From NCBI GenBank assembly GCA_018645265.1, contig JABGOS010000118.1, positions 7,855 through 71,854 on the forward strand: DNA of 64,000 nt. Reading direction: 5' to 3'. How positions within the stretch are numbered: the first letter of the stretch is position 1; every line of letters begins with the position of its first letter. This DNA comes from Deltaproteobacteria bacterium. Its GTDB lineage: Bacteria; UBA10199; 2-02-FULL-44-16; JAAZCA01. Position numbers and translations under genes: made by a program. Of this stretch, positions 17,075 to 51,625 are shown one piece after another. Under the pieces are notes generated by a model. It ran no database searches and was not told where the DNA came from. It saw nothing but the letters and a program-made list of their open reading frames with translations.

Positions 17075-17128
17075 AAAAGTGTCCGACACTTTTTTCCAAT
17101 TATCCCAGAAAAGTGTCCGACACTTTTT
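17075..17128. repeat. two copies of the palindromic element AAAAGTGTCCGACAC-TTTTT immediately after the dNK stop
   Basis: 17075-17095 and 17109-17128. Each is an A-tract, the palindrome GTGTC-C-GACAC, then a T-tract. Confidence 0.8.
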
Positions 17129-17434: not shown

Positions 17435-17494
17435 CAAAAAAGGTGTCGGACACTTTTTTGGTGAAAATTCTAATAAGTGTCGGACACCTTTTGG
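17435..17494. repeat. two copies of the palindromic element (AAAAAAGGTGTCGGACAC-TTTTTT and AAGTGTCGGACACC-TTTTGG) just 3' of lemA
   Basis: 17435-17459 and 17475-17494. Same core as the other copies, in the complementary orientation. Confidence 0.8.
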
Positions 17495-22085: not shown

Positions 22086-22553
22086 TTACTGTAAAAAACC
22101 GAACGCCGTTCTATCATCTTCCATTTCGGAGCATTCGATATCCGAATGGGAGTTTACGAGTTTAAGAAAAAGTGGAATATCAGTGATCCCCTTGATGAAG
22201 ATTTCATGAAGCCTCTTCGTATTTTGAGGGACGAGCTTTAGAGCTGTGGTGCGCGGGCCACGCAGTAGGCGCTGAATGCCCTTTATGTCGGAGAATTTAA
22301 TGAATCTCTCAGGTCCCCATAGAAGACGCATGCCCACTCTATCGCTATAGAGTTTGAATCTGCATAGTATCGATTGCTTCGTGAGCGTTGTAGCTCCCTT
22401 TAATGTCGTCCAGGATGAATAGATAACGGGGTCAGTAGAACCCTCAGCGATGATGGCTTCTCCAAATCTCTTCATGCGCCATGTGATGACATACGGGGAG
22501 ACGAGTATTAGTCCGACTATAATCAGAACAATTGTCAGCAATTGAGTATCCAT
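22086..22553 (-). CDS. hypothetical single-pass membrane protein located between hypC and hypF
   Basis: TM helix LLTIVLIIVGLILVSPYVITW. No recognisable motifs. Start set at the internal ATG (MDTQLL) to avoid overlapping the hypF stop. Confidence 0.45.
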   Translation of the reverse strand: MDTQLLTIVLIIVGLILVSPYVITWRMKRFGEAIIAEGSTDPVIYSSWTTLKGATTLTKQSILCRFKLYSDRVGMRLLWGPERFIKFSDIKGIQRLLRGPRTTALKLVPQNTKRLHEIFIKGITDIPLFLKLVNSHSDIECSEMEDDRTAFGFLQ

Positions 22554-22563
22554 CCTCTTCCTT

Positions 22564-24867
22564 TCATTTTGTTTTATGAAGGTGTGCTGCGATGGCCGCC
22601 TGTCCAAGTGCTACGCCTCCATCGCCTGGGGGCACGAGAGAGTGCGTATAGACCGTAAACCCTTTATCTACAAGTAATTTCTTGAGTTTCGTCATCAGTA
22701 TCGCATTTTGGAAACATCCCCCCGACAGACAGACACGCCGTCTGTCGTGTATTGCATTCCCTTTATCAATTTTTGTACATATATCGAACAATGCGCCTAC
22801 AATTGTATTGTGAAAACGCATACTTATAACGCCAAGCTCTGTGCCAGCTTGAACCCCCTCGCTGATGGCTGCAATCATCGGCGAGAAATTAATTCTCAGT
22901 GCTCCGTTGCAGGTTTCGTCGATTGTAAATGGATATACACCGTGCTCAGATTCGTCCGCAATCTGCTCAAGCTCCATCGCTGCCTGTCCCTCGAAAGAGT
23001 TTTTCATTCGAAGACCTGTCAAAGCTGCCACAGCGTCGAAAAGTCTTCCGCAGCTGGAGGTCATCGGGCAGTTGATATCCTTTTCAATCATCTGCTGAAC
23101 AAATTTAATTTTCTCATCACCGATTTTTTTGAAATGTTGAATCGTTCGCACTCTGCTGTCTGCAGTCTGAAGATATGCGAGTGCCATCCTCCAACATTCC
23201 TTCGCTGCGACATTCCCCCCGGGCATTGGTATCTGTCCGAAGTGTGCAGCACGCTCGAATGTTTCATAATCGGCCATGAGAACTTCTCCACCCCAAATTG
23301 TTCCGTCCGTTCCGAACCCCGTTCCATCGAGTGCGATGCCGATTACCTTTTCATTAGGTAAATCGTTTTCAGCCATGCAGCTGGCTATGTGAGCATGATG
23401 GTGTTGCACTTCAGTGATCGGTGATCTGTGGTTGGTCGCTATTTTATTTGCAAAACGTGTGCTGAAATAATCTGGATGCATATCGCATGTGACGATCTCG
23501 GGTTTAATGTTCAGAATGTGCATCAGGTGGTCAGCTACCATCTCCAGAGAATCATGGGAATCCAAATTCTCCATGTCACCCAAATGCTGCGATAAAAAAG
23601 CATTGTGACCCTTCGTGAAACAGATGGTGTTTTTTAGATCCGCTCCAACAGCGAAGAGTTGTGGCATTTCAAAGCTCAGTCTTATCGGTGTTGGTGTATA
23701 GCCGCGTGCCCTGCGGAGCATCAACGGCTTGCCATCCATAAGGCGGGTTATGGAATCATCGACTCGAATATGAATATTGCGATCGTGGATGAGGAATGCA
23801 TCAGCTATATCCTTCAGTTTGCGAAACGCCTGGTCATCAATGAATGCGATAGGCTCGTTGGAAATATTGCCACTGGTCATAACCAAAACGCGCCCTGCAC
23901 CAGATTTAAAGAGCAAATGATGTAATGGCGTGGAAGGTAGCATCACACCTAAGTGACTATTGCCCGGGGCAATCATCTCTGAGATTTTCGAGCCCTCTTT
24001 TCTATGCAATAGCACGATAGGGCGCTGTGGTGATATCAACAGCCTTTCTTCCTCATCAGAAATATCACAGAGGGTATTTACTGTCTGTATATTACCAACC
24101 ATGATTGCGAACGGCTTTTCATCACGATCTTTGCGTGCGCGAAGCCTTGTCACCGATTCATCATTCGTGGCATCGCAAGCGAGGTGATAGCCGCCTAACC
24201 CTTTGACCGCGATGATCTTGCCATCATCCATAGATCTCAATGCCTGTTTAACAGGGTCATCAGGGGATTGGGAGGTCGAATTGTCAGACCGGATGAACTT
24301 CACTTGTGGCCCGCACCTTTCGCACGCATTTGGCTGTGCATGAAATCTTCTATTCGATGGGTCGGTGTATTCGTGCTTGCAATCCTCACAGAGTTCAAAC
24401 TCCTTCATCGTCGTCATTGGACGGTCGTATGGTAAATGCTGAATTATGCTATAGCGCGGGCCGCAATTCGTACAGTTGATGAAAGGATATGCGTATCTCC
24501 TGTCGCCTGTATCCATCAGCTCTCTCGTGCAATCATCGCAAGGTGCGATGTCTGGAGATATTAACGTGGTTGAGCTTCCAGTATTTTCGCTTTCGATGAT
24601 TTTGAAATCCGTTTCATCGGTGGTGTTTATAACGGTTGAATCGATTCTTTGAATATGGGCGAGGGGAGGGAGCTCATTTTGAACTCTATCTAGGAAGGAG
24701 TTCAAACGCTCCTCCGGGCCTTCTGCTTCGATTGTCACTCCTTCGGAATGATTGAAGACGTGACCGCCCAGTCCAATTTCCGTAGCTAGCTTGTAGATAA
24801 ACGGACGAAAGCCCACACCCTGAACGGTGCCATCGATATCTATACGCCAGCGGCTGGAAAATCCCAT
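22564..24867 (-). CDS. hypF: carbamoyltransferase HypF
   Basis: Acylphosphatase domain (VQGVGFRPFIYKLA), twin Zn-finger repeats (CDDCTRE...CTNCGPRYSII; CEDCKHEY...CERCGPQ), YrdC-like and Kae1-like domains (HHHAH..., GGCFQN). Confidence 0.9.
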   Translation of the reverse strand: MGFSSRWRIDIDGTVQGVGFRPFIYKLATEIGLGGHVFNHSEGVTIEAEGPEERLNSFLDRVQNELPPLAHIQRIDSTVINTTDETDFKIIESENTGSSTTLISPDIAPCDDCTRELMDTGDRRYAYPFINCTNCGPRYSIIQHLPYDRPMTTMKEFELCEDCKHEYTDPSNRRFHAQPNACERCGPQVKFIRSDNSTSQSPDDPVKQALRSMDDGKIIAVKGLGGYHLACDATNDESVTRLRARKDRDEKPFAIMVGNIQTVNTLCDISDEEERLLISPQRPIVLLHRKEGSKISEMIAPGNSHLGVMLPSTPLHHLLFKSGAGRVLVMTSGNISNEPIAFIDDQAFRKLKDIADAFLIHDRNIHIRVDDSITRLMDGKPLMLRRARGYTPTPIRLSFEMPQLFAVGADLKNTICFTKGHNAFLSQHLGDMENLDSHDSLEMVADHLMHILNIKPEIVTCDMHPDYFSTRFANKIATNHRSPITEVQHHHAHIASCMAENDLPNEKVIGIALDGTGFGTDGTIWGGEVLMADYETFERAAHFGQIPMPGGNVAAKECWRMALAYLQTADSRVRTIQHFKKIGDEKIKFVQQMIEKDINCPMTSSCGRLFDAVAALTGLRMKNSFEGQAAMELEQIADESEHGVYPFTIDETCNGALRINFSPMIAAISEGVQAGTELGVISMRFHNTIVGALFDICTKIDKGNAIHDRRRVCLSGGCFQNAILMTKLKKLLVDKGFTVYTHSLVPPGDGGVALGQAAIAAHLHKTK

Positions 24868-24942
24868 AGGGCGGGACTCTAAGGGTGATGCCCCCTCACT
24901 GTCAAGGTCAATAAAAGGGGTTGAAATGATCGTTTGTAGGCA

Positions 24943-24973
24943 ATAAAAAGGCCCCCTAGCGATTGGGGGCCCT
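24943..24973 (-). terminator. rho-independent terminator after paralog-A gene
   Basis: On the minus strand: gggcccccaatcgctagggggcc followed by ttttta. Confidence 0.55.
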
Positions 24974-24995
24974 TTGAATCGCTTGGATTGGTAGC

Positions 24996-25736
24996 TTATT
25001 CGGCAGCCGGTATTTTCTTCAGTATAGCCATTACAGCTTTTTTGCTAAATGGTTCAAATGTCTTTGTTGTTGGTTTGACGGAGCGGGATCCCCAGGAGAG
25101 ACTCCTTCCATATCCATCTGATCTGCTGTAACAGCGTTCAAATCCTCTTCCATTCTCAGCATTGATTTTTACGTAACATGATTGAGAGTCTATATCCCAG
25201 CTGATATGTAATGCATCGGCTATATCAACTCCAGCTTCAGCAAATGTCCCCTTCGACACCTGCGCGCCATAGGCTACATCGATTCCGAGTCTGTCCTCTG
25301 CAAACTCAGCGAGTTCCTGTCCTGCTGGGAATTTCTCAGCGGCCAGTGTTTTTCTCAGAGTGCGAAAGCCTTTTTCACTGAATCCCCTAGGGGTTTCAAA
25401 TTGTGCGACAGTTGGTTTTGGATCGGGTTTACGGCTAAATCCGCGATTTGGATATGATGTGGTATGGATTGAAGTAGCTCCAGTGCCTTCTTCGCGGATC
25501 ACAAATTGTGTCGATGTAGCTGTCCCGAATTGTCCGAAAGCTGTTTTTTCTGGCATGACACGTTTTGTTGCTATGATGTCGCCCTTACGATTTACACTAA
25601 ATGTCCAACCATCTTCCCTGAAGTTTAAACCGTTCTCTTCGCCTATTTTGTAAAACCAACTTGGAAGCTTTACAGTTTCAGCTGCAGGTTCTGTGCCTTT
25701 CGGTACTCCTGCTACACTTCCTACTGGTAACGTCAT
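24996..25736 (-). CDS. hypothetical protein, paralog A of a two-gene family embedded in the hyp cluster
   Basis: 246 aa. It shares EDGWTFSVNRKGDIIATKRVMPEK, YPNRGFSRK and C..K.......C blocks with the adjacent 192-aa ORF. Confidence 0.5.
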   Translation of the reverse strand: MTLPVGSVAGVPKGTEPAAETVKLPSWFYKIGEENGLNFREDGWTFSVNRKGDIIATKRVMPEKTAFGQFGTATSTQFVIREEGTGATSIHTTSYPNRGFSRKPDPKPTVAQFETPRGFSEKGFRTLRKTLAAEKFPAGQELAEFAEDRLGIDVAYGAQVSKGTFAEAGVDIADALHISWDIDSQSCYVKINAENGRGFERCYSRSDGYGRSLSWGSRSVKPTTKTFEPFSKKAVMAILKKIPAAE

Positions 25737-25906
25737 AAATGCCTCCTTTTGAGTTCAATTTGAATTCCAGAGCTTATAGTAAAAACTTGTGTTCATATCA
25801 ATCTCCCAACAAGTTTTCCGTATACTGGAGTATACAGGGAAGTCCTATACGCAGTGCTTCTATGCAATGCGTTATATATAACAAACGATATGATATTTAA
25901 TGATTA

Positions 25907-26485
25907 TTATTTTTCGGTTGGCTTGGAGATTATTGCTTTTACCTTCGCAACTGCTCTTGGATCGAAACTCATGATATACCTAACTACAGGAACGACATCT
26001 TTTGTTACGGGAGATCGGAGGCATGATCTCGTAGCCGTGCCGTCCGGTTTGATTTTTATAAAACAATCCTCTTTGGAATAGGGGATGATTGGCGAATCTA
26101 TTATGAGATCGTCATTATCCAGCTGAAAGGTGGAACAATAAGGCACCCTCGAACCGAAGCCAGCATCCTGAGCTTTCTCAACAAGATCCTGGGTTGTTTC
26201 GTCACAAGCACACGGAAGTTCTCTTCTGATTCCGCGAACTTCATCTTTTGTCGCTTCGCATTCTCTACTGTATGATCTGCCCCGATGAGGGAAGACCATT
26301 ACTGGTCCTCTTTCCGAAATACTCAATGTAACTGGAACCTTTTTATCGTCGGCAGGCATCATTTTCAAACCTACGATATCACCATCATGATCGACTTTAA
26401 AGTTCCAGCCCATGTTTTCCAGGTGAAGCTGACATCTATTTCCCAATGCTATTAAAGCTGTTGGAAGAACTTGTTCGGTAGACAT
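25907..26485 (-). CDS. hypothetical Cys-rich protein, paralog B (NMGWNFKVDHDGDIVGLKMMPADD N-domain)
   Basis: 192 aa with 7 Cys, including a CAC pair. Homologous blocks to paralog A over the full length. Confidence 0.5.
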   Translation of the reverse strand: MSTEQVLPTALIALGNRCQLHLENMGWNFKVDHDGDIVGLKMMPADDKKVPVTLSISERGPVMVFPHRGRSYSRECEATKDEVRGIRRELPCACDETTQDLVEKAQDAGFGSRVPYCSTFQLDNDDLIIDSPIIPYSKEDCFIKIKPDGTATRSCLRSPVTKDVVPVVRYIMSFDPRAVAKVKAIISKPTEK

Positions 26486-26621
26486 AAATGCTCCTAGATA
26501 TAATTCTGAAATATTTACTCACTTATCGCGGTTTTGGTGAAAATGTTTCGCCTTTTTTGGGTAATTATGGATGGTGTCGAACAGAGCCTATTTAAACAAT
26601 AATAGCTGTATAAACGGTATG

Positions 26622-27011
26622 TTAGGCCTCAATAGATACGAGTTTCATTTCATTGCCGCTTATGAGTTTGATGCTTTCACACTTGCATGTGGGGCATGCT
26701 GGGGGAAGGTAGAGGGCTGGGGCATGGGCTACCTTATGAGCGAAATCGTGATCAGCGAAGCGGTCATCGGTAAAGTTGTGATTGCACTTGGTACACTCAA
26801 GTTTCACCGGAACCTCTTCAATTACAAACTGCATTTCTGCCATCAGTGGGTTTTTTGCATAGTCCTTGAGACATAGATCCAGGTTTTCTCTCTGAAAGGC
26901 ATTCATCACGCCTATCTTGAGTTTTGCGGTCCGAACCTTCTCCATATTTCGGTTCTTCGCTTCCTTCTCTATTATCTTACAGATCGTTTCCGATATAGCC
27001 AGTTCATGCAT
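26622..27011 (-). CDS. hypA: hydrogenase nickel-incorporation protein HypA
   Basis: Internal start MHELAISETI (HypA begins MHE[LM]S[IL]) with AGGAGGGATGAT SD. C-terminal Zn site CTKCNHNF...CPTCKC. The ORF-track N-terminal extension is rejected. Confidence 0.8.
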   Translation of the reverse strand: MHELAISETICKIIEKEAKNRNMEKVRTAKLKIGVMNAFQRENLDLCLKDYAKNPLMAEMQFVIEEVPVKLECTKCNHNFTDDRFADHDFAHKVAHAPALYLPPACPTCKCESIKLISGNEMKLVSIEA

Positions 27012-27107: not shown

Positions 27108-27132
27108 CAAAAAGGTGTCGGACACTTTTTGG
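27108..27132. repeat. single copy of the palindromic element (CAAAAAGGTGTCGGACACTTTTTGG) in the hypA/apbE divergent intergenic region
   Basis: Lies 10 nt upstream of the apbE SD GGGGGGAGA. Confidence 0.8.
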
Positions 27133-28187: not shown

Positions 28188-29438
28188 ATGAAAGAGAATA
28201 GGCGCGTAAAATATATTAGGATTGCATCGTTTAGTTTTCTAGCGTTTTCGGTGATGTTTTCCTATGCGATAGCAAGGCCATCGGCGGAATCGTTATTTCT
28301 GGCGACACATTCCAGCAAAAGTCTTCCGCTGGTATGGCTTATAGTGGCAGCTGCGATGTTGTGTGTGGTTGCCATCTACAATTGGTTTGTCACAAAACAC
28401 GATCTCATTCGCCTTTTTGGATACGCCGCATTCGCCAGCAGCATAACCTTGGTGGGGTTGCTTCTTCTAAAGAGGATGGAAGTATATGGAGTGAATTACG
28501 CCATATATGTCTGGAAGGATATATATGTAGTGGTTCTGGTGGATCTCTTCTATATGTATGCCAATTCCGTATTTCCCATAAAGACAGCTCGGTGGATATA
28601 TGGTTTTTTCGGGGCGTTTGCAGCGGCGGGAAGTATCGTTGGTAATCTGTTGGTAGGTAAGCTCGCAATGGCATATGGAACCGTCGGTTCCTTTTGGTTT
28701 GCCGTTCCTGTATTGGCACTTATTGGATTTTTCTGCCTGCCACTTTCAAAAATCGTTGGAATCGGGAAACCTTTGGAAAAGAAATATAATCATGCCCACA
28801 TCCGTGAAGCGTGGAAGGTTGTGAGGAATAGCTCTTATCTTACACTTATACTCCTTTTGATCTTCGTAGTGCAGATTGCCGTTGTCCTGATAGATTTTGA
28901 GTTCAATGGGGTGGTCGAGAGTGCATTTCCAGATATGGATGTTCGCACCGGAATGATAGGTAAAATTTATGCGATTATTAACAGTGCTACGTTTGTACTG
29001 CACCTCATTACCGGACCGCTATTGAGGTTGGTAACCGTCCCAGGAGCGCTAATCTCCATTCCATTTATTCTGGCACTCAGTGTTGTTACATTTATAGCAT
29101 TTCCTGCATTCATGGTAGTAGCTGTGATGAAAGCGGCGAGTAAAGTTTTTGATTATACGATATTCAAGTCTGCGAAGGAGATTCTGTATATTCCCCTTAC
29201 CTATGAAGAGAAAACTATGGGCAAGTCGATAGTCGACATGCTTTCTTATCGTATTGCGAAGGGCGGGGCATCGCTTTTGCTAATGGGCATTCTTGGATTG
29301 GGGCTGATGAAGATCGTTCCGTGGGTGACACTTGCTCTTATACTGCTTTGGATTGTTATCACGTGGGCGATAGTTAAGAGGTTCAGAAGTAAGGTGGATA
29401 GGTCTCAGGAGATGACATCTGACTTTGTAAATAGGTGA
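28188..29438 (+). CDS. polytopic membrane transporter (MFS-like; N-terminus resembles TLC/ADP-ATP-translocase-type carriers)
   Basis: About 11-12 predicted TM helices. The N-terminal FLAFSVMFSYAIARPSAESLFL resembles the TLC-family start. The subfamily call is weak. Confidence 0.45.
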   Translation: MKENRRVKYIRIASFSFLAFSVMFSYAIARPSAESLFLATHSSKSLPLVWLIVAAAMLCVVAIYNWFVTKHDLIRLFGYAAFASSITLVGLLLLKRMEVYGVNYAIYVWKDIYVVVLVDLFYMYANSVFPIKTARWIYGFFGAFAAAGSIVGNLLVGKLAMAYGTVGSFWFAVPVLALIGFFCLPLSKIVGIGKPLEKKYNHAHIREAWKVVRNSSYLTLILLLIFVVQIAVVLIDFEFNGVVESAFPDMDVRTGMIGKIYAIINSATFVLHLITGPLLRLVTVPGALISIPFILALSVVTFIAFPAFMVVAVMKAASKVFDYTIFKSAKEILYIPLTYEEKTMGKSIVDMLSYRIAKGGASLLLMGILGLGLMKIVPWVTLALILLWIVITWAIVKRFRSKVDRSQEMTSDFVNR

Positions 29439-35539: not shown

Positions 35540-35580
35540 AAAAAGGTGTCCGACACTAAAAAGGTGTCCGACACCTTTTG
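35540..35580. repeat. two abutting copies of the palindromic element (AAAAAGGTGTCCGACAC TAAAAAGGTGTCCGACACCTTTTG)
   Basis: 35540-35557 and 35558-35580. They sit between the 526-aa gene stop and the ECF sigma gene. Confidence 0.8.
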
Positions 35581-35690
35581 TTGTATTATTAACAATATAT
35601 ATCAGTTAGTTAGAGCGGCGCATGTTTTATTTCTCTTTATTGTAGACCAAAACGGCTGTGCATGCGTCTCAAGATGTGGAAGATGAGGCC

Positions 35691-36230
35691 ATGGATCTTA
35701 TAGATAATGCAATCAAGGGTAGCAACGTTGCGTGGAATGAAATCATCAGACGATATCAGAGGAGGGTTTTTGCTGTGGCACTTTCGGTGATGCGAAATTC
35801 TGATGATGCCGATGAAATTACGCAGGAGGTCTTTGTGAAGCTCTATACTCATATGGAGAGTTTAAAAAATAGAGATGGTGTTGGAAGTTGGCTCACCAAA
35901 ACCGCTTACAATATGTCTTGTGATAAATTGAGGTATAGAAAGATTAGGGGTTGGTTGTCATCCTCTGCAAAATCCGATTATGATGTTGCCGATGATCATT
36001 CGGTAAGCGAACGAATCCAAAAGGCCGAACTTGCCGAGACAATAGGAAAATGGATCGATGCGAAACTTTCGAGTAAGGAGAGGGCGGTCGTACAACTCAG
36101 AATTGGCGAGGAGATGAGCTTTCTAGAAATAGCGGAGGCGCTAGGTCTTTCTCAATCGAGCGTTAAGACTTACTATTATAGAGCTGTTGATAAGATGAAG
36201 ATGTTGTCTGGCAAGGGAGGGTTGTTATGA
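35691..36230 (+). CDS. ECF-type RNA polymerase sigma factor (sigma-70 family)
   Basis: Region 2 (YQRRVFAVALSVMRNSDDADEITQEVFVKLY) and region 4 HTH (SFLEIAEALGLSQSSVKTYYYRAVDKMK). ATG at 35691 within the GTG-started ORF. Confidence 0.85.
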   Translation: MDLIDNAIKGSNVAWNEIIRRYQRRVFAVALSVMRNSDDADEITQEVFVKLYTHMESLKNRDGVGSWLTKTAYNMSCDKLRYRKIRGWLSSSAKSDYDVADDHSVSERIQKAELAETIGKWIDAKLSSKERAVVQLRIGEEMSFLEIAEALGLSQSSVKTYYYRAVDKMKMLSGKGGLL

Positions 36231-36583
36231 AGAATGGTGATAACCTCAAGAAGCTTGCAGTGAACGTGGATAGACTTGAAGTTGATTGGAATGCGCAGCG
36301 CGTTCAAATCAACGATAGGATATCGAGGGGGGGGAAGCCCGTCATAAATTTATCATGGGTGTTAGGTGCATTGTCAGTTGCAGCGATGATTGTAGCTGCG
36401 GTAGTGATCTTTACGTTTTCGGCACCGCATGTTGAGGATGGAAGTGATCTGTTCACAGATATTGATATAGAAGAGTACGATATGCCGTATGGTCTTTACG
36501 TATTAAATGGTTTTACTGAAGAAGCTAGCAGTTTTGATGAAACCGCAAATTTTATACTAGCAGAGGAAGGAGATACGTTATGA
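36227..36583 (+). CDS. putative single-pass membrane anti-sigma factor
   Basis: 4-nt overlap with the sigma gene. Cytoplasmic N-terminus, one TM helix (WVLGALSVAAMIVAAVVIF), short periplasmic tail. Assignment is by gene context. Confidence 0.45.
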   Translation: MKNGDNLKKLAVNVDRLEVDWNAQRVQINDRISRGGKPVINLSWVLGALSVAAMIVAAVVIFTFSAPHVEDGSDLFTDIDIEEYDMPYGLYVLNGFTEEASSFDETANFILAEEGDTL

Positions 36584-37071
36584 AGAAATTATCAATTGTG
36601 GTGGTAGTTGTATTAGTTGCTCTGATATTCAGCGCTGATGCCTTTGCGCGAGGTGGTGAAAGAGGTGAAATGGGTGGAGGGGGTCATCGTGGTAAGTGGT
36701 GGAAGGATGCAGAGGTGGTCAAAACACTGAACCTTACTGAGAAACAGGTCGAGGGTATCAATAAAATTTCAAGTGATGAAAGAAGGGGGCAGATAAAAGT
36801 GCGTTCGGATCTCGAAATCCTTAGGATCGATATGGATGATGCTATGGAGGCGAAGGAGTTGGATTCAGGTAAGGTGAACAAGTTGATTGATAAATATGCA
36901 TCGCTCAAAGCCCAGCATGCAAAGGGTAGAATGAAGTCGTTGCTCGAGATTAGGAAATTATTAACACAGGAACAATATCTTAAGCTGAAGGCTATGCGCC
37001 CTGAGAGGGGTGGTAAGAAAGGTGCTAAGCGTCAAGATAAGGGTGGTAAAGAGAAGGGCAGGGGGAAATAG
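36580..37071 (+). CDS. Spy/CpxP-like periplasmic stress protein (two LTxxQ motifs)
   Basis: Signal peptide, LNLTEKQ and LLTQEQYLKLKAM motifs, helical and Lys-rich. 4-nt overlap with the upstream gene. Confidence 0.65.
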   Translation: MKKLSIVVVVVLVALIFSADAFARGGERGEMGGGGHRGKWWKDAEVVKTLNLTEKQVEGINKISSDERRGQIKVRSDLEILRIDMDDAMEAKELDSGKVNKLIDKYASLKAQHAKGRMKSLLEIRKLLTQEQYLKLKAMRPERGGKKGAKRQDKGGKEKGRGK

Positions 37072-40848: not shown

Positions 40849-41466
40849 ATGCTAAGGGAGCTAACTAAAGGATTATTCAGGGAAAATCCGGTCTTGGTGC
40901 TGATGTTGGGTCTATGCCCATTTCTGGCCGTATCGGTGTCTCTTCAGAATGCTGTAGGTATGGGGTTTGCGGCTACGTTCGTTCTTATTTGTTCGAATAC
41001 CATTATCTCGATCTTTGGAAGATTCTTTCCTAGCAAGATCAGAATCCCATGTTTTATCGTAGTTATTGCAACATTTGTTTCGATCGTAGAGATGGTGATA
41101 AGTGCATGGCTTCCCGAACTTAATAAGTCACTCGGTATTTTTATTCCGCTCATCGTTGTTAACTGCATCATTCTTGGCAGGGCAGAAGCATTCGCATCGC
41201 GCAATAAAGTAATTCCATCCATATTCGATGGTTTGGGTATGGGGCTGGGTTTTAGCATTGCGTTGATAATGATTTCGTTTATCCGTGAGGTGTTGGGATC
41301 TGGTCAAATTTGGGGTATTACGATTACATCGTATTTTTCAAATGAGGGTTTGATCAAGCCTGCAGCGGTGATGGTGATGGCGCCTGGAGCGTTCGTCGTA
41401 ATCGGTTTGATAATGGGATTTCAAAATTGGCGCAAGGCCAGAAAATTGGCGCAGCCAATAAGCTAG
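40849..41466 (+). CDS. rnfE: Rnf electron-transport complex subunit E
   Basis: NPVLVLMLGLCPFLAVS, GIFIPLIVVNCIILGRAEAFAS. Collinear with E. coli RsxE. GGAGGG SD. Confidence 0.9.
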   Translation: MLRELTKGLFRENPVLVLMLGLCPFLAVSVSLQNAVGMGFAATFVLICSNTIISIFGRFFPSKIRIPCFIVVIATFVSIVEMVISAWLPELNKSLGIFIPLIVVNCIILGRAEAFASRNKVIPSIFDGLGMGLGFSIALIMISFIREVLGSGQIWGITITSYFSNEGLIKPAAVMVMAPGAFVVIGLIMGFQNWRKARKLAQPIS

Positions 41467-41475
41467 AGGAATCTG

Positions 41476-42129
41476 ATGCAGGAATATATATTACTCTTTA
41501 TATCGATCGTACTCGTTAATAACTTTATATTAGCGAAGTTCCTGGGCCTTTGTCCGTTTATTGGTGTTTCCAAGCAGAGAAAAGCCGCGATCGGTATGGG
41601 TGGCGCTGTTATCTTCGTTATGACCATGGCTTCAGTTGTTTCATGGGTTGTGTATCGTTACCTGCTGGCACCGACGGATAGTAATCTATTCTATATGATG
41701 ATGGGGCAGGGTAAAGTTCCAGCTGATTTTGATTTTACATTTCTGACGACAGTCGTCTTTATTTTGGTGATTGCAACGCTCGTTCAGCTTGTTGAGATGT
41801 TCCTCATGAAGGTGGTTCCACCTCTGTATGATGCTCTTGGCATCTACCTTCCACTTATTACGACCAACTGTGCAGTGATGGGTGTTGCTCTTCTAAATAT
41901 TAAGGACTTTGGGATGTTGCAGAATGCGGGGGTGAGCCTTGTAAAGACTGCCCTGCAGGGTTTTGGTGGAGGTGTCGGTTTTATGCTCGTCATCTTTTTG
42001 ATGAGTGGCATTCGAGAAAGGCTTGATCAGATAGAAGTTCCGGATGCGCTGAAAGGCGCACCGATTGCTTTTATATGTGCAGGGTTGATGGCGTTGGCAT
42101 TTATGGGTTTTGCTGGTTTAGGACAATAG
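41476..42129 (+). CDS. rnfA: Rnf complex subunit A
   Basis: [51 protein letters not shown]...[11 protein letters not shown]. Collinear with RsxA. Confidence 0.9.
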
Positions 42130-42148
42130 TGAAGGACGAACGGATAAC

Positions 42149-43030
42149 ATGTTACCATCTCTAATGATATTAGGATTTCTTGGACTGCTCTTTGGCTTTG
42201 GGCTCTTTATAGCCTCGCGAGTCTTCAGAGTTAATGTTGATGTGCGTATCGCTAGAGTCGAGCATGCCCTTCCAGGTGCAAACTGTGGAGCGTGTGGGCT
42301 AGCAGGCTGCGGTGCCTTTGCAAAAGCGATCGTTCATGGAAGCGCTGACATAACGGGATGTATACCTGGTGGTGATTCTGTAGCGCATCTCGTTGCTGAT
42401 ATCATGGGTGTTGAAGCGAAAGAGGTAGAAAAGGATGTCGCAATTCTCAGGTGTCAGGGTAAAGATGTTCAAGATAGATATGAATATCAGGGTGTGAAGA
42501 CTTGCGCTGCAGCGGCGCTCATACACGGCGGCCCAAAGAGCTGTCTCGAGGGATGCATCGGTTTTGGAGATTGCTGTAAGGTCTGTCCCTTCGATGCTCT
42601 TCATATGAAGGATGGTCTTCCCGTAGTTGATGAAGCCAAATGTAAAAGCTGTGGTAAGTGCGTTGAAGCATGTCCAAAGGGTCTATTTGATCTTCAACCG
42701 ATTGGAAAATTGGTGCATGTCCGCTGCAAGAATCATGAGCTTGGGAAATTCGTTCGCAAGTCCTGTGCGGTGGGATGTATCGCTTGTAAAAAATGCGAAA
42801 AAATATGCAAATTCGATGCTGTTCATATCGAGAATAATCTTGCGGTCTTCGACTATGAAAAGTGCGTATCATGTGGTCTATGCGTAAAGGAATGTCCTAC
42901 TGGTACGATCGTGAATTTACGCATGGAGAGAAAAACAATTGGATTGTGGCCTATAAAGAAAAAGGAAGAGGTAAAGACTGAGGCTGTGGAGAGCGATGCA
43001 GCTCAACCTCAATCTGAAGCTCAATCTTGA
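42149..43030 (+). CDS. rnfB: Rnf complex subunit B (polyferredoxin)
   Basis: N-terminal TM segment, CGACGLAGCGAF cluster and four CxxCxxCxxxCP ferredoxin motifs. Confidence 0.9.
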   Translation: MLPSLMILGFLGLLFGFGLFIASRVFRVNVDVRIARVEHALPGANCGACGLAGCGAFAKAIVHGSADITGCIPGGDSVAHLVADIMGVEAKEVEKDVAILRCQGKDVQDRYEYQGVKTCAAAALIHGGPKSCLEGCIGFGDCCKVCPFDALHMKDGLPVVDEAKCKSCGKCVEACPKGLFDLQPIGKLVHVRCKNHELGKFVRKSCAVGCIACKKCEKICKFDAVHIENNLAVFDYEKCVSCGLCVKECPTGTIVNLRMERKTIGLWPIKKKEEVKTEAVESDAAQPQSEAQS

Positions 43031-43036
43031 ATATTT

Positions 43037-44359
43037 ATGAAAACATTTAAAGACGGCGGCATACATCCTCCTGAGATGAAACAACTCTCGAAGGACTCGA
43101 AGTTGGAAAGGATAGAGCTTCCTAAGCAGCTCATCTTTCCCGTATCCCAGCATATCGGTGCCCCTGCAAAGGCTATCGTGAGTGTGGGGGATGAGGTTCT
43201 TAAAGGTCAGGTTATTGCAGAGGCTAATGGGTTTGTCTCCGTTCCGATTCATGCATCCACCTCAGGCAAGGTTGTAACGATAGAGCCCCGTACAACGGTA
43301 CTTGGTAAGATATGCGACCATATAGTTATTGAGTCGGATGGGCAGGATAAGTGGTCTGAGGAGAATAAACGGTCACGTGAGTGGAAGGATCTTGGCAAAG
43401 ATAAGATTAAGTCCTTCATAAAGGATGCTGGAATTGTGGGGATGGGCGGCGCTGCTTTTCCTACGCATGTAAAACTCTCACCACCAGATGATCGTCCAAT
43501 AGATACGCTCATTCTTAACGGTATTGAGTGCGAACCTTATCTTACATGTGACTATCGCCTCATGATGGAGAAGACTAAGGGGGTTATAGAGGGTCTTCGT
43601 ATTATCATGAAGGTGTTAGGCGTTGAGAGAGCGATTATTGGGGTTGAGGCTAATAAACAGGATGCATTTGAAGCTATGCGTGATGCGTGTTGGGCTGATG
43701 ATGGTATCAGTGCTGAGTTGCTTAAAGTGAAATATCCGCAGGGCGCTGAAAAACAGCTTATTGAAGCGCTGATCGGTCGCGAAGTTCCGCCCGGTAAATT
43801 ACCGCTCGACGTTGGTGTAGTGGTACAGAATGTTGGTACTGCTTACGCTGTTTATGAGGCGGTAACTCAATCTAAACCTCTGATCGAGAGAGCGGTGACG
43901 GTTACAGGTGATGGGATATCGAAGCCTGCCAATCTGATCGTGCCTATCGGAACACCGATAAGTGATCTTCTTCAGCGTCAAGGTGTGAATCCTAAGACGA
44001 AGAAACTAATTCTTGGCGGACCTATGATGGGGATAGCCGTTCCGACGCCTGAGTTTCCGGTGACTAAGGGAACGAGTGGAATACTCGCTTTGATGAAAAT
44101 TCCGAACTACATGCCTGGTCCTTGTATCAGGTGTGGTAAGTGTGTTTCTGTATGTCCTCTTCGAGGGATGGCTGCCGAGATGGTCGCTGCGATTGAGGCT
44201 GGGCAGGTTGAGAAATACGAACATCTTCATGTGCTGGATTGTGTTGAGTGTGGAACGTGCACGTTCGCATGTCCATCGCATCGTACGTTGGTTCATTATG
44301 TTAAACAGGCGAAGGCTGAATATCAGGCATGGAAGGCTGAGCAACAGAATAAAAAATAG
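43037..44359 (+). CDS. rnfC: Rnf complex subunit C
   Basis: NADH/FMN-binding region GIVGMGGAAFPTHVKL and two 4Fe-4S motifs (CIRCGKCVSVCP, CVECGTCTFACP). Confidence 0.9.
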   Translation: MKTFKDGGIHPPEMKQLSKDSKLERIELPKQLIFPVSQHIGAPAKAIVSVGDEVLKGQVIAEANGFVSVPIHASTSGKVVTIEPRTTVLGKICDHIVIESDGQDKWSEENKRSREWKDLGKDKIKSFIKDAGIVGMGGAAFPTHVKLSPPDDRPIDTLILNGIECEPYLTCDYRLMMEKTKGVIEGLRIIMKVLGVERAIIGVEANKQDAFEAMRDACWADDGISAELLKVKYPQGAEKQLIEALIGREVPPGKLPLDVGVVVQNVGTAYAVYEAVTQSKPLIERAVTVTGDGISKPANLIVPIGTPISDLLQRQGVNPKTKKLILGGPMMGIAVPTPEFPVTKGTSGILALMKIPNYMPGPCIRCGKCVSVCPLRGMAAEMVAAIEAGQVEKYEHLHVLDCVECGTCTFACPSHRTLVHYVKQAKAEYQAWKAEQQNKK

Positions 44360-44368
44360 GGTGTCAGA

Positions 44369-45415
44369 ATGGCGGATGCATTATTCGAAAATAAACTGAT
44401 TGTTGGTCCATCACCACACGTTGGCACCTGTGACTCCGTGTCGAGGATTATGTGGAGCGTTGTGATCGCGCTTGTACCGGCGTTCTTCGTTGCGGCTCTG
44501 AACTTTGGGCTATACGCTGTGGCAGTTGCCCTTGTATCTATTATAACTGCTGTAATAGTTGAGGCGGCTGTGCAGAAGTTCAGGGGTGTACCGATTACGG
44601 TGAGTGATGGTTCAGCCGTGGTTACAGGTTTATTGCTTGCTTTTACGCTGCCACCCGATGTGCCATTGTATATTCCGGTTATTGGAAGTGCCTTTGCTAT
44701 AGGGATTGCGAAACACGCTTTTGGCGGCTTAGGTTGTAATATCTGGAATCCAGCCCTTGCTGGTCGCGCATTTTTGTTGGCTGCGTATTCGAGCAATATC
44801 GTAATGACAAAATGGCCAATTCTTGGGACGCCATTTACCGGAAATGTTGCTATCGATGCGGTGACGAAGGCTACGCCGCTCGCGGTGTTGAAAACAGCGC
44901 CGCTAGCATTTTTTAAAAGCTATTCGCTTATGGAACTTTTTCTTGGACGAATCGCAGGATCGATGGGGGAAATGTCTGCACTGGTCTTGATAATCGGCGG
45001 GCTCTTCCTTATCTTTAAGGGTTACATCAATTGGCGTCTTCCTCTAGGATTTATTCTGACGGTTGCAGTGCTTACAGTGTTATTACCTGTTCGCGATTCT
45101 CATGGAGAATTTATCGTATTGTGGAGACATCTTGATACTGTAGGTTTTAATCAGATCATAGGTATTTCTTTGGCACAGGTTCTCTCAGGTGGTCTGATGC
45201 TCGGAGCTTTCTTTATGGCAACCGATATGGTTACGAGCCCTCTCTCAGGAAGGGGGCAGCTCATATTCGGTATTGGATGTGGAGTTTTAACGGCGATCAT
45301 ACGCCTGTACGGTGGTTATCCTGAAGGCGTTTGTTACTCGATATTGATTATGAACACAGCTGTTTGGTTGATAGATAAGCATACAGTTCCGAGGTTCTTT
45401 GGAGCTAGAAAATGA
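44369..45415 (+). CDS. rnfD: Rnf complex subunit D (NqrB-like)
   Basis: Polytopic membrane protein. VTGLLLAF, GGLGCNIWNPALAGRAFLL, FMATDMVTSP. Confidence 0.9.
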   Translation: MADALFENKLIVGPSPHVGTCDSVSRIMWSVVIALVPAFFVAALNFGLYAVAVALVSIITAVIVEAAVQKFRGVPITVSDGSAVVTGLLLAFTLPPDVPLYIPVIGSAFAIGIAKHAFGGLGCNIWNPALAGRAFLLAAYSSNIVMTKWPILGTPFTGNVAIDAVTKATPLAVLKTAPLAFFKSYSLMELFLGRIAGSMGEMSALVLIIGGLFLIFKGYINWRLPLGFILTVAVLTVLLPVRDSHGEFIVLWRHLDTVGFNQIIGISLAQVLSGGLMLGAFFMATDMVTSPLSGRGQLIFGIGCGVLTAIIRLYGGYPEGVCYSILIMNTAVWLIDKHTVPRFFGARK

Positions 45416-46032
45416 CAGAAAAGAAAAAAATGCCTGATTGGATAAAGTTTCCCCTAACGCTCCTTGTAGTAACTTTAATCTCTGCGGCGAGTCTGGCTGC
45501 TCTATATTCCGTAACGCTTCCGAAAAAGAAAGCGATGCAGAAGAAGATTGAACAGGAGGCGCTGAAGGTAGTGATGCCGGAGGCTGATTCATTTGAAATA
45601 AAGATAGCCGATCTCGATGGTGAAAAGTTCCAGTATAGAATTGCCAAGAAGGGTGGCAGGGAAATTGGTTATGTAGCACAGGGTCATGCCACCGGTTATT
45701 CAAGTATTCTTCAAGTTATGGTGGGTGTTGATAAAAAATTTGTAGTGCAGGGTATAAAGGTTCTGTATCAGAAGGAGACTCCGGGTTTAGGTGATAAGGT
45801 GGAGGAGATCCTTTCAAAGAAGACGTGGGGAACTATTTTTGCTGGTACGAGTCCTGATGAGACTGGCCTTCGCCCCTGGTTTCAAGTTCAGTTCGATAAT
45901 AAGAAAGTTCCTGTAAAGGTGAATAAAGATGGCGGCGATATCGATGCGATAACCGGCGCCACCATATCATCACGTGCTGTATGTAATGCGGTTAACGAAG
46001 CAGTCTCCGGTATTCAAAAGGCCTTGAAGTAA
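45412..46032 (+). CDS. rnfG: Rnf complex subunit G (FMN-binding)
   Basis: N-terminal TM segment and the covalent-FMN motif DAITGATISSRAV. 4-nt overlap with rnfD. Confidence 0.9.
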   Translation: MTEKKKMPDWIKFPLTLLVVTLISAASLAALYSVTLPKKKAMQKKIEQEALKVVMPEADSFEIKIADLDGEKFQYRIAKKGGREIGYVAQGHATGYSSILQVMVGVDKKFVVQGIKVLYQKETPGLGDKVEEILSKKTWGTIFAGTSPDETGLRPWFQVQFDNKKVPVKVNKDGGDIDAITGATISSRAVCNAVNEAVSGIQKALK

Positions 46033-46190: not shown

Positions 46191-46997
46191 ATGATCGGTT
46201 CGGCATTAAATGTTTTAGCTTCAACAACTATAGCTGCAGGGGCAGCTTTTGCTGGTGCTGTGCCGTCTCCCGGCAAGTGGTTGGGAGCGAAGTTGGATAG
46301 ATTCTGTGCACCCGCGACTGATTCCATGGGGTGGAGCACAATACCAGTCGATGCAAACAGAAATTATTTCTACACAAAGCGCGTGCAGAGGGCTTTAGCG
46401 CAGCGCTCAACTGCCTACAATGCTTTCAAGTGGAGTTTTGATAAAGCTTTTGCAGCATCTGCACTGATTGCCACCGCCCCTCTGCTAGCAGCATCAGGCG
46501 CGGCTATTCGTTTAACCGCTGGGGGTCCTATACTATTTGTTCAAGAACGTATTGGAAAGGATAGTATGCCGTTCGATGTATATAAGCTTCGTACAATGCA
46601 TGTCGGTTCAGAAGAGCTGGGTACCTATACTGCTTCAGAGGGTGATCCGAGAGTGACGCGCGTTGGTAAATTCTTAAGACGATACCGCTTCGATGAGTTG
46701 CCACAATTTATAAATGTGTTGATTGGTGATATGAGCATGATAGGCCCGAGGCCAGATGCATTAGATATGGTTCGTATGAAGGTAGAAGCTAATGATGGAT
46801 TTAATGCTCGCCACTTGGCTAAACCTGGAATTACAGGTTGGGCACAGGTGCGGGAAGTATATGTAAATGAAGATATGACTCGGCTTGAACTTCAGGTGCA
46901 TGATGATATTTTTGGTATTACAAATGCTTCGGTTCTGCTTGATCTAGAGGTCGTGTTGAGAACTGCCTGGACCATCTTTGCTGGACGTGGAAATTAG
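46191..46997 (+). CDS. monotopic phosphoglycosyl transferase (bacterial sugar transferase / PglC-WbaP C-domain type) with about 85-aa N-terminal extension
   Basis: GGPILFVQERIGKD, KLRTM, DELPQFINVLIGDMSMIGPRPD. ATG at 46191 has a GGAGG SD. The GTG start at 46176 in the ORF track is rejected. Confidence 0.8.
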   Translation: MIGSALNVLASTTIAAGAAFAGAVPSPGKWLGAKLDRFCAPATDSMGWSTIPVDANRNYFYTKRVQRALAQRSTAYNAFKWSFDKAFAASALIATAPLLAASGAAIRLTAGGPILFVQERIGKDSMPFDVYKLRTMHVGSEELGTYTASEGDPRVTRVGKFLRRYRFDELPQFINVLIGDMSMIGPRPDALDMVRMKVEANDGFNARHLAKPGITGWAQVREVYVNEDMTRLELQVHDDIFGITNASVLLDLEVVLRTAWTIFAGRGN

Positions 46998-47449
46998 AGG
47001 ATAATATCCTTAAGTGTCTTTGGGATCTCATTTAAGGATTCTTCTACAGATGTTGAAAGAGAAGTTCCCATGCCAATATGTTCCGGCTGAATTCCCACAA
47101 TAATAACTTTTTCTGGATAACTTCCTGCGTGCTTCGCTAATTCCAGTGCGCCCAGTAAGTCGGTAGCGTGAAGGCTGATCTCGTCATTCGTGTCACGCTT
47201 GAGATCTGCGGCATTGAAAATGCTGATTTCGCCCGGTTTTGCTTCAAAATCTGCACAATCGATAATAACAACTAGTTTCCTTCCTTCGATCATATGGAGT
47301 AGGGCGACTCCTGGAGTTCCGCCATCGATGATATCGATATCATCTGACCAGTTCATTGTGCGAAGTTTGGCGATGGCATGGATGCCTACACCCTCGTCGC
47401 TCATGAGGTAATTTCCAACTCCGATTATCGCTGTAGGTTTCTTTGTCAT
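46994..47449 (-). CDS. hydrogenase maturation endopeptidase (HycI/HoxW type)
   Basis: IIGVGNYLMSDEGVGIHA, IIDGG, and HATDLLGAL metal-site motifs. Internal ATG (MTKKP) chosen. Confidence 0.85.
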   Translation of the reverse strand: MTKKPTAIIGVGNYLMSDEGVGIHAIAKLRTMNWSDDIDIIDGGTPGVALLHMIEGRKLVVIIDCADFEAKPGEISIFNAADLKRDTNDEISLHATDLLGALELAKHAGSYPEKVIIVGIQPEHIGMGTSLSTSVEESLNEIPKTLKDIIL

Positions 47450-47518
47450 AATTCTGCATCCAATAAAAAACCGGGGAGAGACATAGCCCCTCCCCGGTCG
47501 CATTGCAATCTATCAAAG

Positions 47519-48823
47519 TTACTTATTGTTGAAGTTAACTTTTAAATAATGCGTCGAGCAGGATATGCATGGATCGTATGCGCGTACCAGCATTTCAAGA
47601 AGCAGCTCAACTTCAGCCTGAGGCTTATTGACGATCTGGGGAACCAGCGCTTCCATATCCCTCTGTATGTTATTGTGATTCTGGTTTGTAGGGATAATGC
47701 AGTTGGCCTTTGTGCAAACACCGTCATCATCGTAGGTATAGTCATGAATCAGGATTCCGCGAGGTACATCCACTACTCCGATTCCGCGGCCAGCCTTCGG
47801 CTTGACCTCAACTGTTTCCTCCTTGATGCCACGATGTAGGAGTTCATCGATGATGCGTACTGAGTCATCCACCATATAGATGCATTCGACAAACTGTGCC
47901 ACAGTATTCATGAAGGTATTGTAGCACGGTGCAACGAGCCCAATCTCCTCAGCGTACTTTTTGGCATTCGGTGTCAACTGGGCATGGTTGATGTTGAAAC
48001 GGGCAAGCGCTCCAACCATGAGAGAATCCTGTTTCCGTTTTGTGTACTTTGCTGTGGATTGCGGTACGCAGAACTCATTAGTCCAGGTTTCGTATTCCGT
48101 GATCGGGGCTGTGTCGCCGAGCGATGAGCCAAGAAGACCGTCGTAGAGTGCATATTCATTTTTGTCGGTTAGTGAGACATACTCGGTTTCGCGCGTAAAG
48201 TTTGGCAGCTTAGGTGCAAGTGCCTTGAGGAGGTTTCCAACTGCCGTAAGGTCGGGAGCAGCAGAAAGAAGCGTATCCTTCAAACCCTTCAGTTCATCTA
48301 TAGTTGGAACCTTGGAAAAGCCACCAGGGATGATTCTCTGTGGATGAATCGTCCGACCACAGACGAGATCGCTCATTTGGTTTGCGATTCTATGAAGTTT
48401 TATAACTGTTTTTACCTCGTTTGGATGGGAGGTAGCGAGTGGGATTACCGAGCCTACGCCTACGAGATCCGGTAGCACTAGGTAGCCTACATGCAACACA
48501 TGGCTCTGAAGGTTTTCAGCGTGAATTGCAAGACGTCTAAGCAGTTCTGATTGATCAGAGAGCTTTAAGCCCATCGCGTTTTCTGTAGCTTTGACCGATG
48601 CGGAGGTATGGCCGATCGAGCAGATGCCACAAATGCGGCTGGTTATATGGTGAAGCATGTCCCATTTTTGTCCGATAACCATGGCTTCAAAATAGCGTGG
48701 CGCCTCTGGGCCCTGCCACTGTACATTCTCAACGTTGCCATCTTTGGCATTGACCACTATGTTTCCATGACCCTCAACGCGGGTTACATAATGAATATCG
48801 ATATTAAGGTTTCCGTTACTCAT
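47519..48823 (-). CDS. [NiFe]-hydrogenase large (alpha) subunit, group 3b-like
   Basis: L1 motif RICGICSIGHTSA. C-terminal L2 motif DPCISCSTHYL. GGAGGAA SD. Confidence 0.9.
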   Translation of the reverse strand: MSNGNLNIDIHYVTRVEGHGNIVVNAKDGNVENVQWQGPEAPRYFEAMVIGQKWDMLHHITSRICGICSIGHTSASVKATENAMGLKLSDQSELLRRLAIHAENLQSHVLHVGYLVLPDLVGVGSVIPLATSHPNEVKTVIKLHRIANQMSDLVCGRTIHPQRIIPGGFSKVPTIDELKGLKDTLLSAAPDLTAVGNLLKALAPKLPNFTRETEYVSLTDKNEYALYDGLLGSSLGDTAPITEYETWTNEFCVPQSTAKYTKRKQDSLMVGALARFNINHAQLTPNAKKYAEEIGLVAPCYNTFMNTVAQFVECIYMVDDSVRIIDELLHRGIKEETVEVKPKAGRGIGVVDVPRGILIHDYTYDDDGVCTKANCIIPTNQNHNNIQRDMEALVPQIVNKPQAEVELLLEMLVRAYDPCISCSTHYLKVNFNNK

Positions 48824-48874
48824 TTTTCCTCCAAGTAAAATCTTTTAGCCATCAAAAGACAGCTATGATTATTA

Positions 48875-49615
48875 TTATCCCTTAGGAAGTTCATTTGTGA
48901 AATATGTTGCCATTCTCTTGGTGAGTTCATCGACTGAGAGGTTGTACTTCTCAAGAACTTCCTTGTGAGCGTCGACATTTGGATCGTTTACTAGACCACG
49001 ACAGCCCCAACAGGTAGCCCCTTCAGTGACACAGCAAGCATCACATCCTGCGCGAGTAATTGGTCCAACACATGTCTGACCCTTTTCAAAGACGCATACA
49101 TTGCCAGCTTGTTTGCAGTCAACGCACATTGGGTAGTTAGGTATGTCAGGCTGTGTGCCAGTGAGGAGTGATTTTACTACCTTTACGAACTCACTCTGAG
49201 TCATAGGGCAGCCGTAAACCTTGTAATCTACGTCTATAACTTCACCGATGCCGCGCGCTCTGTATGTATCATAGTCTTTCCAATTCTCGCCATAGACTTC
49301 CTTGCGAACTGTTTCCAAGGGGCGAATATTTTTGAGGGCGTTGATCCCACCGCTCGTTGCACATGCGCCGATGGCGACTACGATCTTCGCGTTTTTTCTA
49401 ATATCCTTTAGACGAGCTTCATCAGCCACGCGTGTGCAAGAACCTTCGATGAAGGCGATATCGTAATCATCTGAATGTTCCTTCATGGCTTCGCGGAAGC
49501 TCACTATTTCAACATGTTCCAATACGTCGAGAAGGGCCTCTTCGAGGTTTACGACCGTAAGCTGGTCACCTTCACAACCTGCAAAATCAAAAAATGCTAT
49601 TTTTGGTTTACTCAT
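48875..49615 (-). CDS. [NiFe]-hydrogenase small (delta) subunit
   Basis: FDFAGCEGD, GSC, AIGACATSGG proximal-cluster Cys pattern. C-terminal extra Cys (CPMTQSEF..., CVDCKQAGNVC, GCDACC). Confidence 0.85.
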   Translation of the reverse strand: MSKPKIAFFDFAGCEGDQLTVVNLEEALLDVLEHVEIVSFREAMKEHSDDYDIAFIEGSCTRVADEARLKDIRKNAKIVVAIGACATSGGINALKNIRPLETVRKEVYGENWKDYDTYRARGIGEVIDVDYKVYGCPMTQSEFVKVVKSLLTGTQPDIPNYPMCVDCKQAGNVCVFEKGQTCVGPITRAGCDACCVTEGATCWGCRGLVNDPNVDAHKEVLEKYNLSVDELTKRMATYFTNELPKG

Positions 49616-49661
49616 GACTTATCCTTTCCCTCAATAACTCTCACGCGGAGAGGTTAGTTCG

Positions 49662-50498: not shown

Positions 50499-50525
50499 GA
50501 TATGTTGCCCTCCAATTTAAATTAA

Positions 50526-51557: not shown

Positions 51558-51625
51558 TTTTGACTCTCCTCCCATTCGTGGTTTTGAAAAGGCGGGCGAA
51601 TATTATGCGAAAGTAGGTGCAATGC

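Follow-up and report, generated by a model that had tools for sequence, protein, structure and literature searches.

In classical hypABFCDE clusters, hypB is located between hypA and hypF. HypB of the GTPase type is an alpha/beta NTPase of the G3E P-loop class (PF02492, cobW/HypB), and its metal sites are a CH-X30-34-C motif in the G domain and/or an N-terminal CxxCGC or His-rich nickel site (PMC13202556). In Thermococcus kodakarensis, the partner of HypA is a MinD-type ATPase HypB (PDB 3a43, 5aun; PMC13202556). Other small and non-universal genes, among them hypX, hupG-K, hyaE/F and slyD, are also found among hyp genes and are spread over many taxa. In this work, we analyzed two open reading frames (ORFs), A and B, that are located between hypA and hypF in a 64,000-nt stretch (the window) of contig JABGOS010000118.1, which belongs to a metagenome-assembled genome labelled "Deltaproteobacteria bacterium"; at NCBI they are the hypothetical proteins HN337_07845 and HN337_07850. 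The initial annotation had regarded them as candidates for an accessory factor of [NiFe]-hydrogenase maturation, for example in a metal-handling step. We put at about even the chance that A and B are instead a lineage-restricted orphan module that has its own signals at a hyp operon boundary, probably works as a hetero-oligomer and is not an equivalent of HypB. Position alone connects them with the maturation of hydrogenases, and the locus, taken as a system, is a variant of the hyp cluster with orphan genes inserted into it.

The family was searched with A, B and the A orthologue as queries in a word-indexed collection of 5.8 billion clusters, and 1.84 billion representatives were scanned exhaustively with a HMMER profile. 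In these protein searches it was found in two organisms only, each with one B and one A, the other members recovered being the B orthologue (P0003), a frameshifted copy of it (P0004) and the A orthologue (P0005). Two additional hits, P0006 and P0007, were spurious, as they are repetitive proteins whose score was summed from many weak repeats. Scans of GTDB-genome and JGI-metagenome DNA with B returned an identical copy (L005) and three short matches; one of these (L004) was discarded as a chance peptide, ENMGWNFK, inside an unrelated 190-aa ORF, and the two others (L006, L007) as similarly short. The second organism is represented by a JGI contig (L001) and by GCA_964458295.1 (L008), in which we read the order TLC(-), apbE(-), hypA, B, A, a hairpin with a T-run, and hypF, identical to the gene order of the window. 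By sequence comparison, A and B make up a new protein family without known relatives. As a side observation, the B orthologue lacks a single T at nt 315 in L008 (2353-2799) when compared with L001 (898-1485), which results in the frameshifted 148-aa call P0004; the cause is an error of the assembly or else a pseudogene at the population level.

A and B are true paralogues and form one family, as shown by their full-length similarity and by their identical predicted topology. Indeed, BLASTP aligned A and B with an E value of 1e-7 (22% identity over 223 columns, almost the whole length), and a profile-profile comparison by hhalign of A plus its orthologue against B plus its orthologue reached a probability of 96.4% (E=1.3e-9, 179 columns). 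The full-length homology that had been proposed from the sequence is therefore well founded. All four A x B cross-comparisons, orthologues included, gave E values of 1e-6 to 1e-7, so that the duplication predates the split of the two host organisms. In the AlphaFold2 (AF2) models of both proteins the order of the elements is alike, namely helix, five strands, helix, helix, five strands, helix. An internal duplication of this fold was not detectable by sequence, either with BLAST or when the N-terminal and C-terminal halves were compared by hhalign (probability 0.3%). Of the three shared blocks described initially, the C-terminal one is retained as a C-x13/14-C hairpin block in all four proteins, whereas the orthologues conserve neither "GW.F.V...GDI" nor "YPNRGFSRK/FPHRGRSYSRE".

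The two partners differ in composition. B is predicted to be a soluble alpha+beta protein with a pI of 6.3, seven Cys (positions 18, 76, 92, 94, 117, 141 and 155) and three His, and A is basic (pI 9.1) with two Cys and two His. The count of seven Cys in B given earlier is right and six of them are kept in the B orthologue, but the "CAC" pair is not a conserved feature, since its first residue, C92, is Gly there. The only two Cys common to all four proteins are the C-x13/14-C pair, at the ends of a beta-hairpin. The AF2 model of B reached a pLDDT of 78.9 and a pTM of 0.70 from an alignment of three sequences only, the five models spanning pLDDT 58 to 79; that of A reached a pLDDT of 63.4, with low-confidence loops inserted into the fold that it shares with B. 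A, B and their orthologues had no match in Pfam or NCBIfam, even at E up to 1, and A and B had none among PHROG, PADLOC or PDB sequences. A weak match of B to DUF7205 (E=0.01) was dismissed, being absent from the B orthologue. No convincing structural match was obtained for A or B; the folds that recurred among the weak matches, of the PUR, Whirly and p32(Mam33) types, likewise consist of several strands and a helix, twice over.

With the GTPase type of HypB, the pair shares its genomic position only. No Walker A P-loop (GxxxxGK[ST]) was found in A or B by a regular-expression search of all ORFs of at least 80 aa, and both proteins are devoid of a CH dipeptide motif, of CH-X30-34-C, of CxxC motifs including the N-terminal CxxCGC, and of any His-rich tract, His being scarce in both. 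Moreover, the fold predicted for A and B is an antiparallel beta-meander with helices, in contrast to the alpha/beta NTPase fold of HypB, and this predicted topology cannot be reconciled with a degenerate P-loop NTPase. They also lack the deviant Walker A (KGGxGK[ST]) of the MinD-type HypB and any similarity to Mrp/MinD. Neither an FKBP_C domain nor the His/Cys-rich C-terminal tail of SlyD/FKBP-type nickel chaperones was found. Like hypX, hupG-K, hyaE/F and slyD, A and B are small non-universal genes among hyp genes, but they match none of these families in Pfam or NCBIfam and occur in two organisms instead of many taxa. A metal-handling role is thus not borne out, given the lack of an NTPase motif, of a His-rich or CxxC motif and of a match to a hydrogenase accessory family, and with only two Cys common to both lineages.

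Comparison of the two organisms shows A and B to be genuine genes under purifying selection. The identity between B and P0003 is 65%, with a ratio of nonsynonymous to synonymous substitution rates (dN/dS) of about 0.09; between A and P0005 it is 35%, the proportions of nonsynonymous (pN) and synonymous (pS) differences being 0.45 vs 0.79. For comparison, identity is 82% for HypA, 78% for the N-terminus of HypF and 70% for ApbE. The constraint on B is about equal to that on ApbE, and the constraint on A is much less. Synonymous sites are saturated between the two organisms (pS 0.63-0.79). The G+C content at third codon positions (GC3) is 0.34 in A and 0.38 in B, and higher, 0.43-0.54, in all 13 neighbours compared. 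In the second organism, the orthologues (0.43 and 0.40) are below apbE and hypA (0.55 and 0.56), and they are not below the 5' end of hypF (0.38). The low GC3 of A and B is a mild hint of foreign origin or of different expression.

On the minus strand, the genes are ordered hypA, ORF B, ORF A, hypF, a 155-aa ORF (orf155), hypC, hypD and hypE, with apbE beyond hypA and transcribed in the opposite direction (Table 1). HypA, HypF and HypC were matched to Pfam families, and HypD and HypE were taken from a precomputed Pfam map. The coordinates initially given for A and B proved exact, and both ORFs have good ribosome-binding sites on the minus strand. In contrast, the "tight spacing" with hypA and hypF does not hold, as the gaps are of 136 nt (hypA-B), 170 nt (B-A) and 128 nt (A-hypF).

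These large spacers contain the signals that suggest a separate module. After A lies an intrinsic terminator, missed by a simple terminator scan, with a minimum free energy of -25.6 kcal/mol (z=-4.1). The orthologous spacer of L008 has a different stem sequence and still forms a hairpin with a U-run (-24.4 kcal/mol, z=-3.3); since this hairpin differs in sequence yet matches in strength, the terminator is maintained by compensatory change. Downstream of it, a promoter-like block, the best match in the region, ends 8 nt before the ATG of hypF, which has no Shine-Dalgarno sequence, so that the hypF transcript is probably leaderless. About 55 nt around this block are almost identical in L008. Judged from these signals, the block would mark the boundary of a neighbouring hypF-orf155-hypCDE unit and A and B would be insulated from hypF.

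In the spacer between hypA and B, neither a terminator nor a significant RNA structure was found, and read-through, that is co-transcription of hypA-B-A, is therefore possible. A TTGCRC-N17-TATAG promoter-like sequence, read by eye, is conserved upstream of hypA. The hypA-B spacer itself contains two blocks, AAAAAAGRCGAAACATTTTCA and GCGATAAGTGAGTAAA, that are identical or nearly so between the window and L001/L008 despite the saturation of synonymous sites, and the element that they form could serve B-A as an internal promoter or operator. It presumably resembles -35/-10 elements of the extracytoplasmic function (ECF) type when it is read as GAAAC-N16-CGAT. This kind of motif (GAAAC-N15-17-CGAT) is not enriched in the window (3 found vs 1.8 expected), and the conserved blocks have no other copy there, including upstream of the hydrogenase operon and of hypF. 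No Rfam match was found in the 22-28 kb region. Of the proposal that A and B are co-expressed with both neighbours, the part concerning hypF is contradicted by the conserved terminator and the separate promoter-like block, while the part concerning hypA is possible in the absence of an intervening terminator.

Taken together, we propose that A and B arose long ago when an orphan gene restricted to this lineage was duplicated in tandem, and their products would both be soluble cytoplasmic alpha+beta proteins (helix, five strands, helix, twice over) without known relatives. The module would be governed by its own signals, namely an upstream element of B that resembles a promoter or operator, a ribosome-binding site for each gene and the terminator after A, and would sit at the junction of the hypA unit and the probably leaderless hypF-orf155-hypCDE unit, with possible read-through from hypA. 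The conserved, Cys-rich and near-neutral B might carry the core activity and pair, through the shared fold, with the basic and fast-evolving A as a hetero-oligomer; the two may be joined at the C-x13/14-C beta-hairpin, which is the only motif that the four proteins share. A and B would not be NTPases, and the nucleotide-driven nickel delivery of HypB would not be their task; they might well be independent of hydrogenase maturation. The hypB slot would more likely be a permissive operon boundary, and hypB, of the GTPase or the MinD type, may be encoded elsewhere or be dispensable. In favor of this proposal, we count the orphan status, the own signals, the large spacers with conserved blocks, the deviant GC3, the lack of accessory features, the much faster divergence of A than of HypA or HypF, the absence of the element upstream of B from the regions before the hydrogenase operon and hypF, and the T. 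kodakarensis-like type of HypA.

Several observations weigh against it. The sole terminator of the hypA-B-A stretch is located after A and none after hypA, which gives the stretch the look of a three-gene operon. The pair lies exactly in the classical hypB position, in agreement with what had been noted initially, and the arrangement is kept in both known carriers despite saturated synonymous sites. B keeps six Cys, unusually many for a 192-aa cytoplasmic protein. Furthermore, no hypB was found in about 80 kb, yet the window holds a hydrogenase operon and a HycI protease gene. The pair adjoins hypA and hypF in 2/2 carriers, with n=2 and the whole neighbourhood syntenic; because TLC, apbE, hypA and hypF are kept together as well, the conserved position is proof neither for nor against a link in function.

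The same observations could be explained if hypA-B-A were one operon and a B/A complex, in addition to a HypB encoded elsewhere, helped HypA to insert nickel into the hydrogenase of the group 3b type. Such a complex might serve as an adaptor that contacts the large subunit, or the thiols of the conserved cysteines of B might buffer Ni/Zn. The lack of a terminator between hypA and B, the shared strand and gene order in both carriers, the conserved Cys of B with the hairpin pair in all four proteins, and the presence of hydrogenase and protease genes 20 kb away are all in line with this explanation. However, no other hydrogenase-bearing organism in the databases searched has the family, A has diverged far more between the carriers than HypA, A and B have no recognised metal motif in common and few His each, the conserved promoter-like element in the 136-nt spacer suggests separate control, and the GC3 of A and B is deviant. 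We consider such a HypA-coupled role possible, with a minority share of the probability. What remains of the accessory-factor proposal is therefore the position and the possible link to hypA, without co-expression with hypF, tight spacing or a metal-handling role.

A second explanation is that a mobile element left the pair behind or carried it as cargo, or that the two genes are a conflict system (for toxin-antitoxin, defence or immunity functions), and that they came to the operon boundary by insertion. The orphan status, the low GC3, the fast evolution of one partner while the other is conserved, and a REP-like palindromic repeat in the nearby apbE-hypA spacer might point in this direction. 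We nevertheless find it improbable: no PADLOC or PHROG match was obtained and the Foldseek TM against the viral structures of BFVD stayed at or below 0.25, no integrase, transposase, tRNA or flanking repeats appear in the Pfam map, paralogous partners are atypical of toxin-antitoxin pairs, and any insertion must be old and stable, as the position is identical in two lineages between which dS is saturated.

The type of HypA bears on whether a HypB is to be expected. HypA of the window has the N-terminal sequence MHELAIS with the canonical MHE nickel site, and CTKC...CPTC motifs; it is of the long-insert type, its two CxxC motifs being 32 residues apart. With T. kodakarensis HypA (3a43) it aligns end to end, insert included, and with H. 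pylori HypA only in two pieces. Such a T. kodakarensis-like, long-insert HypA is unusual for a bacterium labelled deltaproteobacterial. Since the adjacent HypA shares the long insert with the T. kodakarensis protein and the partner of the latter is of the MinD type (PMC13202556), a MinD-type HypB encoded elsewhere in this genome is plausible. Within the window, no HypB- or MinD-type Walker A was found among ORFs of at least 80 aa, the matches being dNK, a STAND kinase, UvrA and chance occurrences, and no cobW/HypB or ParA/Mrp/MinD family is present in the Pfam map of the window with about 9 kb upstream and 6 kb downstream. The earlier statement that the 64 kb contain no P-loop HypB is thus confirmed for both types, and extends with the flanks of about 15 kb to about 80 kb of the 221,532-bp contig. 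We find it very unlikely that the pair replaces HypB, as a previously unseen two-protein partner of the long-insert HypA that gates or supplies nickel for the group 3b hydrogenase in a nucleotide-independent way, in a genome without either HypB type: the exact position in the hypB slot and the absence of both types from the window and flanks would fit, but the pair shows neither NTPase features nor a high-affinity nickel motif (CxxCGC, His-rich or CH-X30-34-C), the HypA is similar to the one that works with a MinD-type HypB (PMC13202556), the family is restricted to two organisms, and, as hyp genes often lie apart from one another, little follows from a lack of hypB in 80 kb when the genome is larger.

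If B and A were to cooperate with HypA, they would represent a new kind of nickel-insertion accessory, and two proteins unrelated to HypB could supplement its step or allow it to be bypassed; this would bear on [NiFe]-hydrogenase maturation in HypB-less organisms and on heterologous hydrogenase production. The present value of the locus is more modest, and lies in a well-delimited orphan family with no known fold relatives, two clear orthologue pairs and mapped regulatory signals.

Table 1. Positions in the window of the genes, signals and other features discussed in the text
Feature	Position	Strand	Remarks
hypA	26622..27011	(-)	129 aa from the MHE start; Pfam HypA, E=2.6e-24; first gene of a putative hypA-B-A unit
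Conserved non-coding element, hypA-B spacer	26514..26562	(-)	ATTACNCAAAAAAGRCGAAACATTTTCA, 8 variable bases, GCGATAAGTGAGTAAA
ORF B	25907..26485	(-)	192 aa; Shine-Dalgarno TAGGAG-N5-ATG
ORF A	24996..25736	(-)	246 aa; Shine-Dalgarno AAGGAGG-N5-ATG
Intrinsic terminator after A	24942..24975	(-)	11-bp G+C-rich stem AAAGGGCCCCC/GGGGGCCUUU, then UUUUUAUU
Promoter-like block for hypF	24868..24905	(-)	TTGACA, 18 nt, TAGAGT; 10/12
hypF	22564-24867	(-)	Pfam family match
155-aa ORF (orf155)	22086-22553	(-)	between hypF and hypC; one predicted transmembrane helix
TLC-family nucleotide transporter gene	28188-29438	(+)	adjoins apbE
ECF sigma factor, 118-aa ORF and LTXXQ protein genes	35658-37071	(+)
Rnf cluster	40849-46032	(+)	complete
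[NiFe]-hydrogenase operon	46994-51575	(-)	group 3b-like, four subunits; large subunit at 47519-48823
13-bp palindrome RGTGTCCGACACY	17078-17090, 17112-17124, 17442-17454, 17476-17488, 27114-27126, 35545-35557, 35563-35575		seven intergenic copies

Among the neighbouring genes, orf155 is tightly wedged, with 10 nt to hypF and 15 nt to hypC, and had no Pfam, PHROG or PADLOC match. Judged on operon structure, it is a stronger candidate than A or B for an uncharacterised hyp-linked gene. The hydrogenase operon, of the sulfhydrogenase type and located 20 kb from the hyp genes, comprises genes for a Fer4_22 protein, a FAD/NAD subunit, the small and large subunits and the HycI protease, and the Rnf cluster adjoins it. 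The transporter gene next to apbE is of the ATP/ADP translocase type, which is noteworthy in a presumably free-living bacterium; it is kept in the second organism as a putative partial ORF at the start of L008.

The window also contains genes for an ECF sigma factor (190 aa) and a 163-aa LTXXQ/Metal_resist (CpxP/CnrX-like) protein, together with a 118-aa ORF for what is possibly an anti-sigma factor. These genes are a possible envelope or metal-stress sensing unit, and to connect this sigma gene with the GAAAC-N16-CGAT element upstream of B would be speculation. Finally, the 13-bp palindrome was found in seven intergenic copies vs 0.6 expected, one of them in the divergent apbE-hypA spacer and two upstream of the ECF sigma gene. 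In the three copies read (27114, 35545 and 35563) it is flanked by an A run and a T run (AAAAAGGTGTCCGACACCTTTTT). The orthologous spacer of L008 does not contain the palindrome, which in the window creates spurious "MSDTFL..." ORF starts. The palindrome looks like a repeat of the REP (repetitive extragenic palindromic) or bidirectional-terminator type.

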